From a virus (lineage: Duplodnaviria > Caudoviricetes): a DNA stretch of 64,000 nucleotides. The stretch is taken from the IMG/VR virus record IMGVR_UViG_3300017716_001697, positions 192,001-256,000 of that record; one strand, given 5' to 3'. Position 1 is the first letter of the stretch. Every line of letters starts with the position of its first letter. The notes under the pieces are model-generated. The model searched no databases and had not been told where the DNA came from. It worked only from the letters and a program-made list of their open reading frames with translations. Below are positions 20,575-29,750 of this stretch, piece by piece. A program made the translations under genes and the position numbers.

Positions 20575-20745
20575 ATGATTTGTCCGAAATGTGATACACT
20601 GATGGGTGCAATGGGGTATGGTGATGAACGGTGTCCTGCTTGTGGACACACATCATATTCTGAATCTGATGAAGAATTTAATCTTCGCATATACGGTACA
20701 ACATTCCGTGAAGGCGAAGATATTGACACTGAACAAAGAGAATAA
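20575..20745 (+). CDS. Small Zn-ribbon protein (56 aa, absent from ORF track)
   Basis: MICPKC...RCPACG; stop 1 nt before the rtcB ATG. Confidence 0.7.
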   Translation: MICPKCDTLMGAMGYGDERCPACGHTSYSESDEEFNLRIYGTTFREGEDIDTEQRE

Positions 20746-20746
20746 T

Positions 20747-21940
20747 ATGGAAATCGAAAATGTAAAAATGTGGGTAGGTGATATGGAAGTAGAGCAAGCA
20801 GCTCTATCCCAAATCCTAAACATTTCCCAACTACCTATCCTTGCTGGACACATGGCTATCATGCCAGACGTACACATGGGTAAAGGTGCCACTGTGGGTT
20901 CTGTTATCCCTACACGTTCTGCAATTATTCCTGCGGCTGTGGGTGTGGATATCGGCTGTGGTATGATTGCAGCAATGACCAACCTTACTGCCGATGATCT
21001 TCCTGACTCATTGTTTTCGTTGCGTAATGCAATTGAAAAGGTAGTACCTGTAGGATTCAACGAACACGCAAAGGGCATCCCTTCTGTATCGGGACCTTAC
21101 GCAGATATCCTGCGCAAGAATTTGCACAAGACAATGGATCAATGGGATCACTTGGCAATGAAGCAGCACCTTGGTCGTGCTGACGAAAAGCGCATTGCTC
21201 GCCAAATCGGTACGCTAGGTGGTGGTAACCACTTTATCGAAATCTGTCTCGATACATCTAACCGTGTGTGGATTATGTTACACAGTGGTTCACGCGGTAT
21301 CGGCAATCAAATCGGCACTGTTGCAATCGAAATGGCTAAAGAACAGGCTGCTAAACGTGCATGGGGTCTCCCTGATGCTGATCTTGCATGGCTGGACGAA
21401 GGCACAACCGAATTCGATGCATACATTGAGGCAATGCATTGGGCACAGGACTATGCAAAATTCAACCGCGATACAATGCTGAATTTGGTTATTTCTGCAA
21501 TGAAGGTAAAGTTTCCTACAATGAAGATTGTTGGCGAAGTTGTAAACTGCCACCATAATTTTACAAGCGTGGAAGAGCACTTCAATGAAAAGATCTGGGT
21601 GACACGTAAGGGTGCAGTTTCTGCGCAGTATGGGCAAATGGGTATTATTCCCGGCTCAATGGGTGCAAAGTCATTCATTGTTCGCGGTAAAGGTAATCCT
21701 GATTCCTACTGCTCGTGTTCGCATGGTGCTGGTCGTAAGATGAGCCGCAACCAAGCTAAGAAGTTGTTCACATCACTTGATCTAGAACAACAAACAGCCG
21801 GTGTTGAGTGCCGTAAGGATGCAGACGTAGTTGATGAAATTCCGGGTGCATATAAGGATATTGATCAGGTAATGGCAGCGCAGGCTGATTTGGTTGATAT
21901 TGTACACACGTTGAAGCAAGTTCTTTGTATTAAGGGGTAA
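20747..21940 (+). CDS. rtcB: RtcB RNA ligase (joins 3'-P or 2',3'-cyclic-P to 5'-OH)
   Basis: PDVHMGKG, VGVDIGCG, GTLGGGNHFIE, HSGSRG, HHNF, RKGA, PGSMG, SHGAGR, YKDI motifs. Confidence 0.97.
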   Translation: MEIENVKMWVGDMEVEQAALSQILNISQLPILAGHMAIMPDVHMGKGATVGSVIPTRSAIIPAAVGVDIGCGMIAAMTNLTADDLPDSLFSLRNAIEKVVPVGFNEHAKGIPSVSGPYADILRKNLHKTMDQWDHLAMKQHLGRADEKRIARQIGTLGGGNHFIEICLDTSNRVWIMLHSGSRGIGNQIGTVAIEMAKEQAAKRAWGLPDADLAWLDEGTTEFDAYIEAMHWAQDYAKFNRDTMLNLVISAMKVKFPTMKIVGEVVNCHHNFTSVEEHFNEKIWVTRKGAVSAQYGQMGIIPGSMGAKSFIVRGKGNPDSYCSCSHGAGRKMSRNQAKKLFTSLDLEQQTAGVECRKDADVVDEIPGAYKDIDQVMAAQADLVDIVHTLKQVLCIKG

Positions 21941-21942
21941 TC

Positions 21943-22995
21943 ATGGGATCATGGAACGGAACATGTGCAGTATCTAACCTGCACGTACGAAGCGGGCAAG
22001 AGGTAGCAGTATTCATGCTGCTCGAAAACAAAAGATCAAAATCCTTCTGTTATGGTAATGCATTGTACGATGTATGCCCGTTACCATTCTATGGCAAGTA
22101 TAATGATTACGGTGCAGTAGAAGACTGCCAAGGCCCGGTGTTGCCCATTGTGGTTGACGAAATCAAGCGCCAGCTGTACGAATTTGGCCAAGGCCCGAAC
22201 AGTAGCCACGACATGGTAGTACGCAGGGCCGATTTTGACATTGATCTGTTATTTGAAGCCGACCACGAAGATCGTCTCGGTATTCAATATACACCCTTCT
22301 TCGACGAAGATGATTATGATCTTCGCGAATTGCGTAAAGACGGTGAAAAAGATCAACTTACACCAGATCAGCAATTCGAGCTTGACAGACTAGCCAACAA
22401 ACTCAAACAGGTAGATACATTTAGACGTGTTACACACGTAATTATTCATGGTGATATTTTCCGTGATATCATGAATAAATATTACATCGATGAATATGTT
22501 GGTGACAGCAAAGGTACAACAGGTTATGGAAATAACTATAACCGTGTATTCTTTAAGGATATTCTTGCATCTATTCCTGCATACATCGATGCCTGCAAGT
22601 CTGAAGCGGCAAGAATTAATGCTATGACTGACCCGCATGAACAATGGGCAGAACGAAACATTCCTAAGGATGAATGGAAGAATCCTAATCTTGCAGCAAG
22701 ATGGCTAAACAGCTTCAGTAATAGCAGCGAAGGATTCGGGCTTCTTCGTGTCGACGAATACATTCGCGAATATAAGAATGACGGCCGGTGGGACGAGCTG
22801 ACAGACTTTGTTACAGAAGCGTTAAAGGGTGCATGGGTAAATAGATATATGTCATCCATCCGTAAGCTGTGGTCGAAGCAGACAGGTGCCGGCTCTCAGA
22901 ATGATGAACATGATGGATACAATATCCTGATCCAATCAATGACAGACGTATTGGCGGCCGAGAAGAAGGCGTGGGATGACGAGAACGGGGAGTAG
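21943..22995 (+). CDS. Hypothetical phage protein
   Basis: 350 aa, MGSWNGTCAVSNL..., coupled to rtcB. Confidence 0.8.
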   Translation: MGSWNGTCAVSNLHVRSGQEVAVFMLLENKRSKSFCYGNALYDVCPLPFYGKYNDYGAVEDCQGPVLPIVVDEIKRQLYEFGQGPNSSHDMVVRRADFDIDLLFEADHEDRLGIQYTPFFDEDDYDLRELRKDGEKDQLTPDQQFELDRLANKLKQVDTFRRVTHVIIHGDIFRDIMNKYYIDEYVGDSKGTTGYGNNYNRVFFKDILASIPAYIDACKSEAARINAMTDPHEQWAERNIPKDEWKNPNLAARWLNSFSNSSEGFGLLRVDEYIREYKNDGRWDELTDFVTEALKGAWVNRYMSSIRKLWSKQTGAGSQNDEHDGYNILIQSMTDVLAAEKKAWDDENGE

Positions 22996-25176: not shown

Positions 25177-25506
25177 ATGACACAACTGAACGCAAAATCC
25201 AATCCTATCGAGTACATGCATTTCCGACCGATCTTCCGTGATGTGTCCGGTGGCGCAACTGTTGCCATCATGCCACGTGCAAGTTTGGGCACTGCATTGA
25301 TCTCTGTTGCTCGCTGCGGCCCAATGGACAACTTCAACAAGAAGATTGGCCGCGATGTTGCTACTGGTCGTCTGAGTGCATACCTGGCAGGTCGCCAATC
25401 TGTTGCAGGCCACGTGCGCGAAATTGCTGTGCCAGACATGCTCAAACTCAAAGAGACTGTTGCGATGGCCCTTGAAAACGAAATGGCTGACAACGATCTG
25501 GCGTAA
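25177..25506 (+). CDS. Hypothetical phage protein
   Basis: SVARC..DNFNKKIGRDVATGRL; biased codon usage. Confidence 0.8.
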   Translation: MTQLNAKSNPIEYMHFRPIFRDVSGGATVAIMPRASLGTALISVARCGPMDNFNKKIGRDVATGRLSAYLAGRQSVAGHVREIAVPDMLKLKETVAMALENEMADNDLA

Positions 25507-25663: not shown

Positions 25664-26290
25664 ATGATATGCGAATACGGATGTAATGGGGAGGCCAATC
25701 ATCAATTACTAAACGGTAAATGGTGTTGCAGTAAACGGCCCGCTGGTTGCAAGGTGCTAAAGGCAGTTAACTCGGCAGGTCTGAAGAAAGCGCATAGTGA
25801 GGGTAGGGGCGGATATATTTACAAAGATCTATCTGACGAAACCAAAGCCCGAATGAATTGGGCTAAGGGTAAGACTATTACACCCGATAGCGAAATATTT
25901 ACAGAAAATAGCACATACTCTAACGAGATGGTTAAACATAGAATTGTTAAAGGTGATCTATTAGAATACAAATGCTCTAATCCGAAATGTGGAATAACCG
26001 AATGGTGCGACGAATCTATTGTGTTAGATTTGGATCATATAAATGGTAACAACACAGATAACAGATTATCTAATTTACGATACTTATGCCCAAATTGCCA
26101 TTCTCAGACAGACACATACAAGGGCAGAAATAAGAATACAGGTAAGTTGAAAGTAACCGACACTGAATTGTTGGCAGCATATAAGGAATGCAATAATATT
26201 AGGCAAGCATTAATCAGCGTAGGAATTGCTGCAAAGGGTGGCAATTATGAAAGATTAAAAAAATTAATTAGCAAAACGCTTGCCCTATAG
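25664..26290 (+). CDS. Free-standing HNH homing endonuclease
   Basis: LDLDHINGNNTDNRLSNLRYLCPNCHSQT; N-terminal CEYGC..WCC Zn motif; C-terminal HTH-like tail; late box GATAAATA and RBS AGGAG. Confidence 0.9.
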   Translation: MICEYGCNGEANHQLLNGKWCCSKRPAGCKVLKAVNSAGLKKAHSEGRGGYIYKDLSDETKARMNWAKGKTITPDSEIFTENSTYSNEMVKHRIVKGDLLEYKCSNPKCGITEWCDESIVLDLDHINGNNTDNRLSNLRYLCPNCHSQTDTYKGRNKNTGKLKVTDTELLAAYKECNNIRQALISVGIAAKGGNYERLKKLISKTLAL

Positions 26291-26308
26291 CTAAATATGT
26301 TGTATAAT
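26280..26308 (+). promoter_or_regulatory. Promoter for the tRNA/ncRNA array
   Basis: TTGCCC-N17-TATAAT with an internal TAAATA. Confidence 0.6.
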
Positions 26309-26358
26309 TAATGCATAGCAGCTGATTACAGTAGCTTGTAGAGATCATTAATAAATTA

Positions 26359-26648
26359 GCGGGTATGGAGAAATTGGTAAACTCACCAGACTTAGAGAAA
26401 TAAAATTTGAGTGCCCGGTCGGAAACGATCGGAGTAGAACCTGTCAAATTCGGCGAACACTTTAACATGTCAACGCCGAGCGAAGCCCGAAAGGGAACGT
26501 GTAGAGACTTGACGGCAGGTACCTAACGCAGAAATGCTACGGTAAAGACAAAGTCCAGACTATCAAACCGAGAGGGTAGCGAAAGCTATAGTAGTAAGAA
26601 AATCTGGCGCCGCAAGGCTTGACGGTTCAAGTCCGTCTACCCGCACCA
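26359..26648 (+). tRNA. trnL: tRNA-Leu(UAA) interrupted by a group I intron
   Basis: Exons 26359..26393 and 26599..26648 join into GCGGGTA/TACCCGC acceptor, CCAGA-CTTAAAA-TCTGG anticodon arm, long variable arm and ACCA. Confidence 0.93.
26394..26598 (+). mobile_element. Group I intron (IC3-like, 205 nt, no ORF)
   Basis: P1 ACTT/GAGT with U-G at the splice site; P AAATTCGGCGAA, Q AACGCCGAGCGAAG, R GTGTAGAGACT, S AAGACAAAGTCC; terminal G. Confidence 0.92.
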
Positions 26649-26746
26649 TATTAGGATACATTGTGCAGACGCGGTAGCTAGCCCAAAAGGGACTTTACTA
26701 GCGACAATGGTGAATGCAGGTACAACAGTGTATCCCAATATGGTGC
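26643..26746 (+). ncRNA. Array element E1 (long closing stem, branched interior)
   Basis: GCACCATATT-A-GGATACATTGT / ACAGTGTATCC-C-AATATGGTGC. Confidence 0.75.
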
Positions 26747-26927
26747 CATATTAAAACGCATAAATGCATTAGTTGCATTGGTAATCTGAATGACGTGGAT
26801 AGCTGCATCTTACCCACTGTCAAACAGAGGACATTGCAGGTGATAGCAAATGTAATGGTTTACAGCTAGGCGATTAGAGTCTGGTAGGTGGGTTCAACTC
26901 CTGCTAATGCGGTTTAACATGGCACCA
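26744..26927 (+). ncRNA. Array element E2 (long stem enclosing a tRNA-like domain, ends in CCA)
   Basis: TGCCATATTAAAACGCAT / ATGCGGTTTAACATGGCA; internal T-arm GTGGG-TTCAACT-CCTGC. Confidence 0.7.
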
Positions 26928-27017
26928 TATCGAAGTACATTAACTGAGTACAAGGCTCAGCGTGCGAATTTTAGTAACTAAGCCTCAAGAGGAAGCTATA
27001 GTGTACTTCGATATGGT
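26924..27017 (+). ncRNA. Array element E3
   Basis: Perfect 16-bp stem ACCATATCGAAGTACA/TGTACTTCGATATGGT with three small internal hairpins. Confidence 0.8.
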
Positions 27018-27065
27018 ATAATGTAGACGTATATTGTAACATACACGGAAGGTAATTGGTCCGTG

Positions 27066-27189
27066 AAACTCGACTGTGGTGTAATGGTAGCACTCAAAAG
27101 TTCCTGGTTCGAATCCAGGCCCGCAATAACCAAAGGGGGTTCGGCACAACGAGTAGGAGAGATGGTTCGATTCCGTCCGAATAGAGTTT
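27066..27189 (+). ncRNA. Element E4: D-arm plus two T-arms, no anticodon arm
   Basis: GTGT-AATGGTA-GCAC; CCTGG-TTCGAAT-CCAGG; GATGG-TTCGATT-CCGTC; closed by AAACTC/GAGTTT. Confidence 0.6.
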
Positions 27190-27190
27190 G

Positions 27191-27269
27191 CATATTAGAG
27201 GGCATTATGCTTCTATTTAAAAAGGGAGCCTGTGCTGGCACATTGGCACATCTAATGTCCTCTAATATG
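27191..27269 (+). ncRNA. Array element E5
   Basis: 17-bp stem CATATTAGAGGGCATTA/TAATGTCCTCTAATATG. Confidence 0.8.
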
Positions 27270-27423
27270 ATGCAGGTAGGCAAATGTGGTAAAGCCGCCG
27301 GTTCGGTCCGGTGAGAGATATGTTGAAGTCTTACATGATGACGGGTAGCTGGGTCGACACAGTCCGTACAGTGGCAGGAGCGATATATTTCGTTTATGGG
27401 TTCGATTCCCATCTTGTATCCCA
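27269..27423 (+). ncRNA. tRNA-His-like RNA with 84-nt variable region and 6-nt anticodon loop
   Basis: G-1:C73 pair, acceptor ATGCAGG/CTTGTAT, D-arm GGC/GCC, T-arm ATGGG-TTCGATT-CCCAT, CCA end. Confidence 0.7.
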
Positions 27424-27428
27424 GAATA

Positions 27429-27628
27429 GCCAGGGTAGCTCAGTCAGGCACGAAACTTAAAGGGAAGATGTTGCAACATTCAACGGAGAGAAGTAATGAC
27501 TTAGGAAGGTTAAGTAGTAAGCATCTTATGATACGCGGTGTAAGGTGTGTAGGTGATAGCCAACTATTAAGTAGAGCAACCAGTATCTAACTGGAAGGTC
27601 GTTGGTTCAATTCCATCCGCTGGCACCA
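27429..27628 (+). ncRNA. tRNA-like RNA with a ~120-nt structured D-loop insertion
   Basis: Acceptor GCCAGGG/CGCTGGC, D-stem GCTC/GAGC enclosing 132 nt, anticodon arm CCAG-TATCTAA-CTGG, T-loop TTCAATT, ACCA. Confidence 0.75.
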
Positions 27629-27634
27629 AATTAT

Positions 27635-27749
27635 GCGATGATAGCTTCAGGTTGGTAGAGCGCGTCATTGAATGCCCTATTTATTCTACGTTATGGTATA
27701 TAGGCGAGTGGTCAGGACGAGGTCGCAGGTTCAACGCCTGCTCATTGTA
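27635..27749 (+). ncRNA. tRNA-Phe(GAA)-like RNA with ~40 extra nt in the anticodon loop
   Basis: Acceptor GCGATGA/TCATTGT, D-arm GCTT/GAGC, CGTCA-TT-GAA...GGACG, T-arm GCAGG-TTCAACG-CCTGC. Confidence 0.72.
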
Positions 27750-27753
27750 TAAG

Positions 27754-27861
27754 CCATATGAGAATACACTGTGGAGAGCACTGCGTATGACTGGGAAGGT
27801 TTGAACCCGACTCACATCGTCACTCGGTATCCTGCGGCCGCAACAGTGTATTCCCATATGG
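27754..27861 (+). ncRNA. Array element E7 (paralog of E1)
   Basis: CCATATG-A-GAATACACTGT / ACAGTGTATTC-C-CATATGG; compensatory changes relative to E1. Confidence 0.8.
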
Positions 27862-28185
27862 TACGAAGGGTAGAAGATGATATCAAAGGCTATTTCCTTT
27901 TTTGATAGACGAAACGCTGTGGCCACGGTGTTAGACTACTTATTGGTTAACCATTGTACCGCCAGATTCCGAAGCCTGTAATCAGGCCTGCCAAACAGTA
28001 AATTGGAGTGTGGGAGGACGCACTTAAAACCATCTCCCGCAGGGTCACCATGTGTTATGAGCGGTGATAGTTTAGCGAACCGGAGTCCTAAAAACCGGAA
28101 GGGTAAAGCAAACTTACCTACAAGTAGCGAAAGGTCTGCTATAGCAGTCAAGCCATCCTAGTCTGGAAAACTAGGGTGCATTTAT
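27862..28185 (+). ncRNA. Unassigned multi-hairpin RNA ending in a terminator-like stem
   Basis: Stems TATCAAA/TTTGATA, GCCTG/CAGGC, GAGTGTG/CGCACTT, TCACC/GGTGA, GGGTAA/TTACCT, CATCCTAG/CTAGGGTG. Confidence 0.45.
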
Positions 28186-28348
28186 TTTAGAAAGATATCC
28201 ATATGTACACTTATGCATGGACCATATTTGGTTATTACGGTGGACCTACTATGACAACAAATTATCAACAACACTGTTCGTGGTACACTGTTGACGATTT
28301 TGGTGATCTCGTACCTGCCACATACAAAATGGATTATTTGGAGACAAC

Positions 28349-28558
28349 ATGACACAGAAAATTTACGGATTAATTGCTGACGGCGGTGACGGAAGTTCTA
28401 GCATGCGTTGGTTTCGATCTTTTGATAAGGTTAACGAATTGCTCGACGAAGAGAATGGGCACGAGGAATATTGGGCGAACGAAGGCGGACCTGCCGAAAG
28501 ACTTACCTTCCCCGATGATCTTAATCTTGAGGAGTGCGGATTCTACTTTAGTGACTGA
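28349..28558 (+). CDS. Acidic hypothetical protein
   Basis: RBS GGAG; DGGDGSSS...WF. Confidence 0.7.
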   Translation: MTQKIYGLIADGGDGSSSMRWFRSFDKVNELLDEENGHEEYWANEGGPAERLTFPDDLNLEECGFYFSD

Positions 28559-28563
28559 AACGT

Positions 28564-28797
28564 ATGACGTACAAATACGTGATTACTGTAGACTATCCTG
28601 AGCGAAGGCATATCTGGGATTGGTGTGTAGAACACATAGGTAAGTCAGCGCATGATACATTTTACTATGATCCGGGACAAGGGCAGTGGCCCAATATTCC
28701 GAAATTCATAATTTATAATCCAGAACATGCTACATTGTTTAAATTAGTATGGGGTGAATATATAAAGGGCAACGTGAAGGCCCCGTGCAGTATATAG
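28564..28797 (+). CDS. Family A small protein
   Basis: IWDWCVEHIG...FIIYNPEHATLFKLVWG. Confidence 0.8.
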   Translation: MTYKYVITVDYPERRHIWDWCVEHIGKSAHDTFYYDPGQGQWPNIPKFIIYNPEHATLFKLVWGEYIKGNVKAPCSI

Positions 28798-28874
28798 CGG
28801 CATACCCGTATCTACTGCATAAAGGTATAGACTAGTAATACCACGGCTCTTGGTTGTTATCGGACTAAACAACC

Positions 28875-29011
28875 ACCATATCAAATCATATTGCCCTACC
28901 CATTGGGTAGCAGACAGTGGTTGGAAGGATCTGCTCGTTACTCGCCGCGTTGGATGCACTCGGGTTGCACCGATGCCAACAGACAGTGATTGCAGTATGA
29001 TTTGATATGGT
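28875..29011 (+). ncRNA. Array element E8
   Basis: 20-bp stem ACCATATCAAATCATATTGC/GCAGTATGATTTGATATGGT with a branched interior. Confidence 0.8.
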
Positions 29012-29119
29012 CATTATATAGAAACAGAATTCTATGTTACAGGCGTGGGGGGTACGAACCACATTAAATAAATAAGTAACTGAAAATCCTGTGCCCCTCG
29101 AGTATGTTTCTATATGGTG
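29012..29119 (+). ncRNA. Array element E9
   Basis: 15-bp stem CATTATATAGAAACA/TGTTTCTATATGGTG abutting E8. Confidence 0.7.
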
Positions 29120-29242
29120 ATGTAGTGTCCTCGAAAGGGACTGTGGCGGGGCGGAACGGATCGTTATACGGTGATGCCCATGAGAATTCAATCCACACGG
29201 AGCAAGAGTAAGTGAACGTGAGTAGCCGACTACCAATCACCA
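29115..29242 (+). ncRNA. Array element E10
   Basis: TGGTGAT-GTAGT / ACTAC-CA-ATCACCA; overlaps the 3' end of E9. Confidence 0.55.
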
Positions 29243-29275
29243 TAACCATTAGACAGCGGCGGCGCCGGGTGTTAT

Positions 29276-29333
29276 AATATGCTGAGCCTAGTACAAAGGG
29301 TCGACACGCAAGATACATAATTCGCAGCATATT
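29276..29333 (+). ncRNA. Array element E11
   Basis: AATATGCTG/CAGCATATT stem abutting E12. Confidence 0.5.
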
Positions 29334-29463
29334 TCTTATTGAAGTACATTTTTGTCCACATTTCTCCAGGGAGCGACTGTGGGTGCGTTGTCACTAAACT
29401 ATACGACGCCAACCATCCCTAGACTGTACGTAAGACACACAGTTGGAATGTGCTTCAATAAGA
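29334..29463 (+). ncRNA. Array element E12 (paralog of E3)
   Basis: 17-bp stem TCTTATTGAAGTACATT/AATGTGCTTCAATAAGA. Confidence 0.78.
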
Positions 29464-29480
29464 TTTAACACATAAATTAT

Positions 29481-29750
29481 ATGTCACACTCAATGCAACT
29501 TAACATACCAGACCGAGTTTTCGGTAATTGTCATTACCTTGTGGCTCCTCGCATCAGAGAATGGATGGATGAATATAAGTTGCATATCTCGTACTGTGGA
29601 TCTAATTTATCGGGTACAGGATACAACAAGAACGGGGAATCTAATAAAGAATGGTCCTACATGGTGTACAATATCAAAGAAGAAGATGCATCCATGTTTA
29701 AAATCCGATTCCCGGATTGCAAAGTGTATCTTAGTGAACAGGTTGCATAA
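29481..29750 (+). CDS. Family A small protein
   Basis: YNIKEEDASMFKIRFP. Confidence 0.75.
   Translation: MSHSMQLNIPDRVFGNCHYLVAPRIREWMDEYKLHISYCGSNLSGTGYNKNGESNKEWSYMVYNIKEEDASMFKIRFPDCKVYLSEQVA

Follow-up and report, generated by a model that had tools for sequence, protein, structure and literature searches.

Hairpins that abut transfer RNAs (tRNAs) are known from the tRNA punctuation of mitochondrial transcripts and from the tRNA-pre-microRNA units of murid herpesvirus 68, where the enzymes acting on the tRNA ends also set the ends of the hairpin; both are systems of eukaryotes that rely on RNase Z and Dicer. Another reference point is RNase III, which binds approximately 22 bp of double-stranded RNA (dsRNA), is favored by mismatches at its target to make single-strand cuts that leave protective 3′ hairpins, and is inhibited by G-C pairs at two proximal-box positions (PMC3867540, PMC6212723). 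Its sites have a distal box without conserved sequence and degenerate proximal boxes (PMC3867540). Here, we report on a 64,000-nucleotide stretch of phage DNA (the window; bases 192001-256000 of the source record) in which hairpin units, labeled E1 to E12 with gaps in the numbering, are interspersed with tRNA and tRNA-like sequences. The source record is a complete jumbo phage genome of 364,576 bp (364.6 kb), uncultured and with direct terminal repeats. Judged by sequence and predicted folding, the E units belong to a widespread family of phage RNAs with a conserved helix of approximately 19-20 bp.

The initial annotation of this DNA, made from the letters alone, had described five elements (E1, E2, E3, E5, and E7), each closed by a long stem with similar ends and a variable interior. 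All five lie where it had placed them, and each folds with a long closing stem. Its extent of the array holds for these five units and falls short of three more, E8, E9, and E12 at 28874-29465, which form a second stretch of hairpins downstream of the first array. In window coordinates, the units are:

26644..26745, plus strand: E1, helix of 19-22 bp with an A8·C mismatch and a 64-nt cargo (-43.7 kcal/mol, z -6.0)
26745..26923, plus strand: E2, degenerate helix with two mismatches and a 140-nt cargo (-62.3 kcal/mol, z -4.5)
26923..27018, plus strand: E3, the best-scoring family member in the window (-37.2 kcal/mol, z -7.3)
27188..27272, plus strand: E5, with GCAUAU in place of CCAUAU (-33.1 kcal/mol, z -5.7)
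27752..27863, plus strand: E7, helix paralogous to that of E1 (-38.6 kcal/mol, z -3.3)
28874..29121, plus strand: E8 (28875-29011) and E9 (29010-29121), abutting units of the second array, from an unbiased stem scan
29332..29465, plus strand: E12 (stem 29334-29463), helix paralogous to that of E3, with UCUUAU for CCAUAU, from the same unbiased stem scan

The closing stems of E1, E3, E5, and E7 comprise 17-22 pairs, with fold z-scores between -3.3 and -7.3 against dinucleotide shuffles, and the helices in the window take the shape of 19-22 bp of regular dsRNA. A covariance model, R1, was built from 70 units of other contigs, with zero window sequence in its training set. It recovers E3 (53.8 bits, E 7.9e-12), E1 (44.9 bits, E 1.8e-9), E7 (40.3 bits, E 2.9e-8), E8 (39.4 bits, E 4.7e-8), E12 (27.3 bits, E 7.2e-5) and, with filters off, E5 (26.2 bits, E 7.8e-6) and E9 (19.6 bits, E 4e-4). 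The covariance search proposed by the initial annotation thus finds the window units with a model from other phages, except for E2, which R1 failed to detect in a window search with filters off. All seven recovered units score better on the plus strand (E1 reaches 34.5 bits on the minus strand). The arm of E2, read by eye as CCAUAUUAAAACGCAU, has two mismatches, and its cargo folds into a four-way junction that includes a T-arm-like hairpin (T-loop motif at 26892). Run over the phage's own genome, R1 gave strong matches only in the array region and one other, weak match at genome 3686-3755 (25.9 bits, E 9.5e-4). When all 364.6 kb of the genome were scanned for stems with CATAT...ATATG ends and 16 or more pairs, these turned up solely at window positions 26647-29009, a clustering in one region that is far beyond chance.

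Several finer features of the stems had been read correctly from the sequence. Compensated pairs distinguish E1 from E7 at stem positions 7 (U-A vs G-C) and 10 (G-C vs A-U), the A·C mismatch at position 8 is common to both, and C-A-Y at positions 14-16 is true for E1, E2, E3, E5, and E7. E8 has U at position 14, U16·G occurs in E1, E3, and E8, and the helix of E9 contains tandem U·G pairs that form on the plus strand only. The proposed head-to-tail tiling applies to E1, E2, and E3, which overlap by 0-3 nt, and breaks down for E5 and E7, which are separated by tRNA-like units. The 5′ arm opens with a CCA that, as the initial annotation had not noted, also forms the 3′ end of the RNA before it, namely the ACCA of a tRNA-Leu for E1 and the ACCA of E2 for E3; E5 and E7 are preceded by tRNA-like units without an exact CCA. 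Positions 7-13 of the window helices have diverged with compensation, and cognate arms in the array pair at a mean of -22 kcal/mol compared with -8.6 kcal/mol for non-cognate arms, so that each window unit closes on itself.

The family becomes apparent once the arms alone are used as a query. IMG/VR was scanned with CCATAT-N7-CAYT and ARTG-N7-ATATGG in two cargo-length ranges, which gave at least 274 pattern matches, and 263 of the matches listed have N7 segments complementary at 6 or 7 positions (the family counts that follow likewise refer to the matches and units listed). They represent at least 243 distinct units on at least 195 viral contigs, 190 of the 195 carrying tRNAs; the carriers are uncultured freshwater and wastewater phages with either T4-like genomes of approximately 160 kb or jumbo genomes of 350-400 kb. 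The helix consensus reads UACCAUAU-WR-AAACACAYU paired with ARUGUGUUUYWAUAUGGUA, and the seven "free" bases of the search pattern thus turn out to be conserved in sequence. The family is defined here by a helix with 17 or more pairs in which CCAUAU-N7-CAYU faces ARUG-N7-AUAUGG. A total of 163 of the 243 units begin exactly at the CCA of a tRNA on the same strand, most often tRNA-Lys (76), tRNA-Gln (25), or tRNA-Glu (19), and in 60 of the 243 the next tRNA begins at the GG of AUAUGG. A unit that starts at CCA and is followed by a tRNA starting at GG fills the gap between a tRNA 3′ processing site and an RNase P site. Minimal units measure only 63-70 nt and contain just a small loop region. R1 matched all 27 large records that had been chosen for carrying units, with the matches clustered in one region of each, and 0 of 23 other large phage records, which came from a search with an HNH protein.

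Two loci widen the range of settings. In L065 (2391-2946), a GOLLD RNA (Rfam 204 bits) lies in a phage tRNA array, with a family unit (2862-2946, 35.8 bits) within 5 nt after it, and the helix may also punctuate large ornate RNAs of this kind. In L132 (1340-1400) and similar loci, some units stand first behind a TTGACC-17-TACAAT promoter instead of behind a tRNA; to judge from these loci, a unit can begin a transcript.

The initial annotation had also proposed that RNA structure is under selection, and the larger set bears this out in three ways. When the units are oriented by their tRNAs before pair types are counted, positions 11-13 contain 65 G·U and 0 A·C pairs, and position 16 is U·G in 75% of the units and never C·A. 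These wobbles would be mismatches on the opposite strand, which indicates that selection acts on the RNA of the tRNA-sense strand. Position 8 is an exception, with A·C in 39%, G-C in 34%, A-U in 17%, and G·U never. Covariation in the 20-pair helix exceeds that of all 500 shuffles and of every slid control. Furthermore, T-arm-like hairpins are present in 19 of 236 cargos in the sense orientation, in 0 in antisense, and in a mean of 0.2 in shuffles, an enrichment of approximately 100-fold.

While the helix stays nearly constant, the cargos vary, as had been claimed for the window alone. Grouping the 236 oriented cargos by similarity gives 169 clusters, of which 130 have a single member; in the others, the members stem from different contigs, with compensatory changes between them. 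A syntenic array in a related phage, of the kind the initial annotation had suggested looking for, was found by way of a DNA ligase gene 4 kb downstream of the array, whose IMG/VR relatives are 58-79% identical. One of the contigs with such a relative, L108 (237 kb), carries a syntenic array with a tRNA-Leu without intron, a tRNA-Thr, and then a row of ACCAUAU units. The E3 cargo recurs there after tRNA-Thr (L108:7012-7068) with 96.6% identity (2 changes in 58 nt), and the two helices differ at six positions (7, 8, 9, 11, 13, and 16), five of which (7, 8, 9, 11, and 13) are changed on both sides, while position 16 goes from U·G to C-G. Similarly, the E7 cargo is 88% identical to L260:10167-10239, where it lies within a canonical helix that differs at five positions, three of which (7, 9, and 12) have both partners altered. 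For the E8 cargo, a counterpart with 93% identity lies at 11065-11165 of L346, part of the 353-kb phage G019, again within a canonical helix. Overall, the helices of E3, E7, and E8 show four to six differences from their counterparts, three to five of them two-sided, and the one-sided changes, which involve a wobble or mismatch, fall at position 8 or 16.

Turnover of whole units is visible as well. Wastewater contigs from three studies join tRNA-Leu directly to E3, without E1 and E2, and this absence of two units as a block implies that units are gained or lost as blocks at the ACCAUAU junction. Stems diverge further from the consensus where a contig has several units. The idea that stems within a contig differ more than stems between contigs was dropped, as the mean distances are 2.28 and 2.51, respectively. 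A search of IMG/VR with the E1/E7 arm alone was also uninformative: its 13 matches were all coding sequence without a partner arm and are attributed to chance. The small flanking genes at 28564-28794 and 25177-25503 have no useful relatives.

The first array extends from a promoter-like site to a terminator and contains an intron-split tRNA-Leu, aberrant tRNA-like RNAs, and E1, E2, E3, E5, and E7; at eight or more units in total, the window array is unusually long. The open reading frame (ORF) listing contains no credible gene on the plus strand from 26290 to 28200. Both the co-oriented, non-coding nature of the array and its single promoter-like site at 26280-26308, as initially described, were upheld. 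The remaining features are:

26280..26308, plus strand: promoter-like site, sigma-70-like, TTGCCC-17-TATAAT, 10 of 12 consensus positions (a consensus match only)
26359..26648, plus strand: tRNA-Leu(UAA), split after U34 by a 205-nt group I intron (26394-26598), from an ARAGORN intron search
27019..27188, plus strand: tRNA-like block containing a D-arm-like hairpin and two T-arm motifs, at 27107 and 27165, without a usable anticodon arm (T-loop motifs, fold)
27269-27426, plus strand: His-like aberrant tRNA-like RNA whose anticodon loop has 6 nt and whose variable arm is long (fold, low-stringency ARAGORN)
27427-27626, plus strand: aberrant tRNA-like RNA with a D-loop insert of approximately 120 nt (fold, low-stringency ARAGORN)
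27627-27752, plus strand: aberrant tRNA-like RNA with an insert of approximately 40 nt in the anticodon loop (fold, low-stringency ARAGORN)
27864..28188, plus strand: 3′-terminal structured RNA of the first array, approximately 300 nt up to the terminator, conserved in L102 and L108
28154-28188, plus strand: intrinsic terminator of the first array, a 9-pair hairpin followed by a T run
29250-29278: promoter-like site near E12 (consensus match)
29512-29525: terminator-like site after E12

Run with default settings, ARAGORN and Rfam report a group I intron at 26339-26574 and, outside the array, just two ordinary tRNAs in the rest of the window. The array region contains seven T-loop motifs; together with the restored tRNA-Leu, they indicate that the hairpins are interleaved with one real tRNA and several tRNA-like RNAs whose arms are damaged or expanded. 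The intron of tRNA-Leu(UAA) scores 53 bits with Rfam Intron_gpI, and the ACCA end of this tRNA is the first part of the E1 helix. Neither ARAGORN nor Rfam called a tRNA at 27019-27188. Two low-quality ARAGORN calls, a "tRNA-Ile with 52-nt intron" inside E2 and a "tRNA-Pyl with 62-nt intron" at 27270-27423, were treated as unreliable. The structured RNA at 27864-28190 matches no Rfam family; it is 75% conserved in L102, and in L108 its last 40 nt or so, the terminator, are 90% conserved.

Relatives of the array differ in their mobile elements. The 205-nt intron is present in the window and in L002 (6617-6907) and absent from L108 (6681-6767), L004, and L003. An HNH endonuclease gene homologous to window 25664-26290 ends just before tRNA-Leu in at least six relatives (L002-L007), and a search with the endonuclease returned approximately 590 stretches encoding relatives. 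This 208-aa upstream protein is a poor synteny marker because it is an HNH endonuclease with hundreds of relatives. In the second array, a 133-nt module that is not a hairpin (window 29112-29244) lies between E9 and E12; a copy at L108 7471-7601 is 84% identical and likewise flanked by two units. The module is a conserved RNA of the second array.

With regard to novelty, the earlier statement that this is not a described family was borne out. Only tRNA and the group I intron pass the Rfam 15 gathering threshold in the window, Rfam 15 gave nothing better than E 0.06 over the window units, and only noise was obtained on the canonical units of L132. A BLAST comparison of a canonical unit with 50,697 GenBank phage records returned chance matches only, and the literature, searched by topic and by exact arm sequence, yielded no description. 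In a pattern scan of 185,579 species genomes, 5 stretches were found, all on short contigs of metagenome-assembled genomes (MAGs). These contigs (L334-L338) were binned into freshwater MAGs assigned to Planktophila, Polynucleobacter, Crocinitomicaceae, and a gammaproteobacterium. They are probably phage DNA or contamination, and their bins may hint at hosts.

As to function, we consider it about an even chance that the helix is a handle for processing and protection, cut or trimmed by host enzymes, with the cargos as payload. According to this proposal, the units would be transcribed as part of a tRNA operon, and the helix closes a variable, independently folded cargo RNA. Its 5′ strand begins with A73-CCA of the upstream tRNA or tRNA-like RNA and its 3′ strand ends, in many phages, in G1-G2 of the next tRNA. 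The precursor would then be cut at or within the helix, with host RNase III as a candidate and the central A8·C mismatch possibly biasing the cut; tRNA-end enzymes, namely RNase P at the downstream tRNA and 3′-end nucleases at CCA, are other candidates. Such cuts would free the tRNAs and turn each cargo into a small RNA with a stable stem clamping its ends. The functional payload would be the cargos, of which some are tRNA-like, and the divergent helix middles (7-13) of the window would let each unit pair only with itself.

Cleavage by RNase III is a plausible candidate mechanism; in a substrate of this enzyme, the cuts would be staggered and rnc-dependent and would leave a 5′-phosphate and a 2-nt 3′ overhang. 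The helix of 19-22 bp has about the size that RNase III needs, approximately 20-22 bp (PMC3867540, PMC6212723), and its A/U-rich sequence is compatible with the absence of inhibitory G-C pairs from proximal-box positions 2 and 4 relative to the cut. The phage genome encodes neither an RNase III domain nor a dsRNA-binding domain (dsRBD), so that only a host enzyme could act in this way. The initial annotation had additionally reported an exact match of E5 to the classical RNase III consensus; this match could not be confirmed from the RNase III review cited above (PMC3867540). RNA libraries offer weak hints: contigs from three metatranscriptome studies match the array at 96-99% identity (1-7 differences each), and the adjacent coding region has zero coverage. 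RNA-library contigs from two studies span 27436-27615 and keep the D-loop insert, which therefore seems not to be spliced out of the RNA at 27427-27626; contigs from two studies also span 27978-28171 of the 3′-terminal RNA.

Several observations weigh against a processing and protection handle. As RNase III sites are degenerate, this enzyme leaves the constant CCAUAU, A9-A10, C14-A15, and U17 unexplained. Part of that constancy is a product of the search: positions 1-6, 14-15, and 17 were fixed by the pattern, and their invariance in the large set is partly imposed by it. Indeed, 59 further units that were found by pairing alone have mostly U at position 14 (40 of 59), commonly opposite the conserved G of the 3′ arm, as in CAUAUU vs AGUGUG. 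Identical N7 segments occur in 20% of same-contig unit pairs, so that orthogonal stems are no general requirement. The metatranscriptome contigs, at very low depth, cover no E unit of the window phage, and one RNA contig runs unbroken from another tRNA-Leu into an E1-like arm. This coverage fits units that are unstable or poorly captured rather than abundant stable RNAs.

The main rival is a dedicated protein that binds the helix, giving a ribonucleoprotein like Ro60 with Y RNA, in which the cargo would confer the specificity of the particle, for instance by acting as a decoy for, or an aptamer against, proteins of host defence or RNA processing. We regard this as fairly unlikely, although it would account for the conservation of the helix in sequence and not in pairing alone. 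The constant blocks 1-6 and 14-17 are approximately one helical turn apart on the same face, together with the fixed A8·C and U16·G, and the cargos are many, conserved, and in some cases tRNA-like, as in bacterial Y RNAs. The window phage encodes a possible partner, a DUF2828 protein with a vWA-like DUF7788 domain. However, no partner emerged among the candidates checked. DUF2828 was rejected as a Ro-like partner for lack of co-occurrence, being found in just 7 of 27 unit-carrying (E-positive) records and 4 of the 11 complete ones. The genome has no TROVE domain, the commonest neighboring gene families, all ordinary T4-like genes, occur at no more than 22% of loci each, and the Rfam Y_RNA and YrlA models gave no match at E up to 10. 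The DUF2828 and DUF7788 protein itself (477 aa, G000:C1:51302-52735) lies outside the window and returned nothing informative against PDB sequences; its architecture occurs near tRNA arrays in 17 of the 195 listed unit-bearing loci. If the units were instead insulating spacers, stable hairpins that prevent tRNA misfolding and block exonucleases around a functionless cargo, their flush position between tRNA ends, the small loops of the minimal 63-70 nt units, and the lack of E units in the RNA-library contigs would all follow. Such a role needs no conserved helix sequence, and it sits badly with cargo classes that are conserved across contigs with compensatory changes, with E3, E7, and E8 cargos that are better conserved than their helices, and with the T-arm modules enriched over shuffles, which makes it quite unlikely in our view.

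An explanation at the level of DNA, with the constant ends as mobile-element termini or integron-like recombination sites for tRNA and cargo cassettes and RNA folding as incidental, is very unlikely. The pair counts at positions 11-13 and 16 fit folding of the tRNA-sense strand, not duplex sites; the interiors are unrelated between copies, unlike those of miniature inverted-repeat transposable elements (MITEs). There is no fixed target duplication, with flanking TA...TA in only 40% of listed units, and no recombinase is consistently near. What this explanation captures is the presence or absence of E1 and E2 as a block with a junction exactly at ACCAUAU, the occurrence of one cargo in different helices, and the HNH homing endonuclease genes within these arrays, and the constant ends may serve secondarily as recombination homology. 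A further scheme, modeled on archaeal bulge-helix-bulge processing, has an endonuclease that leaves a cyclic phosphate excise the units and the phage RtcB ligase join the ends into circular cargos or spliced products. The closing helix does bring both ends of a unit together, and an RtcB gene lies 4.7 kb upstream (window 20606-21937, Pfam E 1e-127). Nevertheless, RtcB was rejected as a partner, since it fails to co-occur with the units (found in 1 of the 27 E-positive records and in 0 of the 11 that are complete, vs 5 of 23 E-negative records). The helices are continuous, without a bulge-helix-bulge motif, and the D-loop insert is unspliced in RNA, so that the scheme appears extremely improbable. 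The RtcB gene is followed directly by a 350-aa ORF without Pfam match (both within window 20606-22995); it is also present in the closest relative, G025/L108, and absent from the other unit-carrying phages. Going beyond the processing and protection handle that we favor, the helix could be the handle of a dedicated phage system with exchangeable cargos, and the tRNA arrays would then be effector cassette arrays that recombine at ACCAUAU. This is speculative and, in our estimation, unlikely; if true, the cargos would be effectors such as decoys or aptamers, directed at RNA-processing enzymes or at host defences that target tRNAs, and they would move from handle to handle and from phage to phage.

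Irrespective of mechanism, phage tRNA arrays, which are usually read as lists of tRNAs, would in this clade also serve to express a large variety of small structured RNAs. The RNA family is new, comprises hundreds of members and approximately 170 cargo classes, and has a searchable signature. It represents a natural parallel to the "tRNA scaffold" that is used for RNA expression in synthetic biology, and it raises the question of what reads a sequence-conserved dsRNA with a fixed A·C mismatch in bacteria. The window phage is an extreme case, with its units set among crippled tRNA-like RNAs.

Compared with known systems, the closest likeness in shape is to the RNase III stalks of rRNA operon stems and of the T7 early sites R1.1-R5, where sequences on either side of a cargo pair into approximately two turns of dsRNA within a polycistronic transcript. 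If a mismatch lies centrally, it could steer the enzyme to a single-strand cut and so leave a protective hairpin (PMC3867540). However, the known sites lack a strongly conserved sequence, whereas the present helix is nearly constant over hundreds of contigs and fused to the CCA and G1G2 ends of tRNAs, and cleavage here is a candidate only. Regarding location, species 1 and 2 of T4 (rnaC and rnaD) and the tRNA-cluster RNAs of T5 and N4 are likewise small non-tRNA RNAs co-transcribed in a phage tRNA cluster, and some of them have a T-arm. In contrast to the present units, rnaC and rnaD have no 19-bp closing helix and form no series with a constant handle and variable cargo. They were rejected as homologues: the best R1 score, 10 bits (E 0.2), falls elsewhere in the T4 locus L348, and their folds are without the helix. 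In the tRNA punctuation of mitochondria and herpesvirus, the payload is carried by the stem; here, the loop carries it, and the CCA itself forms part of the helix base.

Y RNAs and YrlA resemble the units in that their 5′ and 3′ ends form a conserved stem around a variable internal module, and those of bacteria and phages carry a tRNA-like module. Here, however, there is no Ro/TROVE gene and no Rfam match, the helix has a different sequence without the bulged-C Ro site, and DUF2828 fails to track the family. An origin as a MITE or small inverted-repeat transposon was discarded in view of the number of clusters among the cargos (169 among 236), flanks that are not fixed, and strand-asymmetric mismatches. 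The CRISPR-like logic proposed by the initial annotation holds for the architecture, in which constant elements alternate with variable inserts in one transcript, and it fails otherwise. There is no cas gene; what stays constant is a pair of arms that form a single helix, not a direct repeat, and in place of acquired spacers the inserts are structured RNAs that are conserved from phage to phage. No Rfam family of CRISPR direct repeats matched the window. The module is an undescribed family, whose architecture varies known ideas: processing stalks, tRNA punctuation, and the stable RNAs of phage tRNA clusters.

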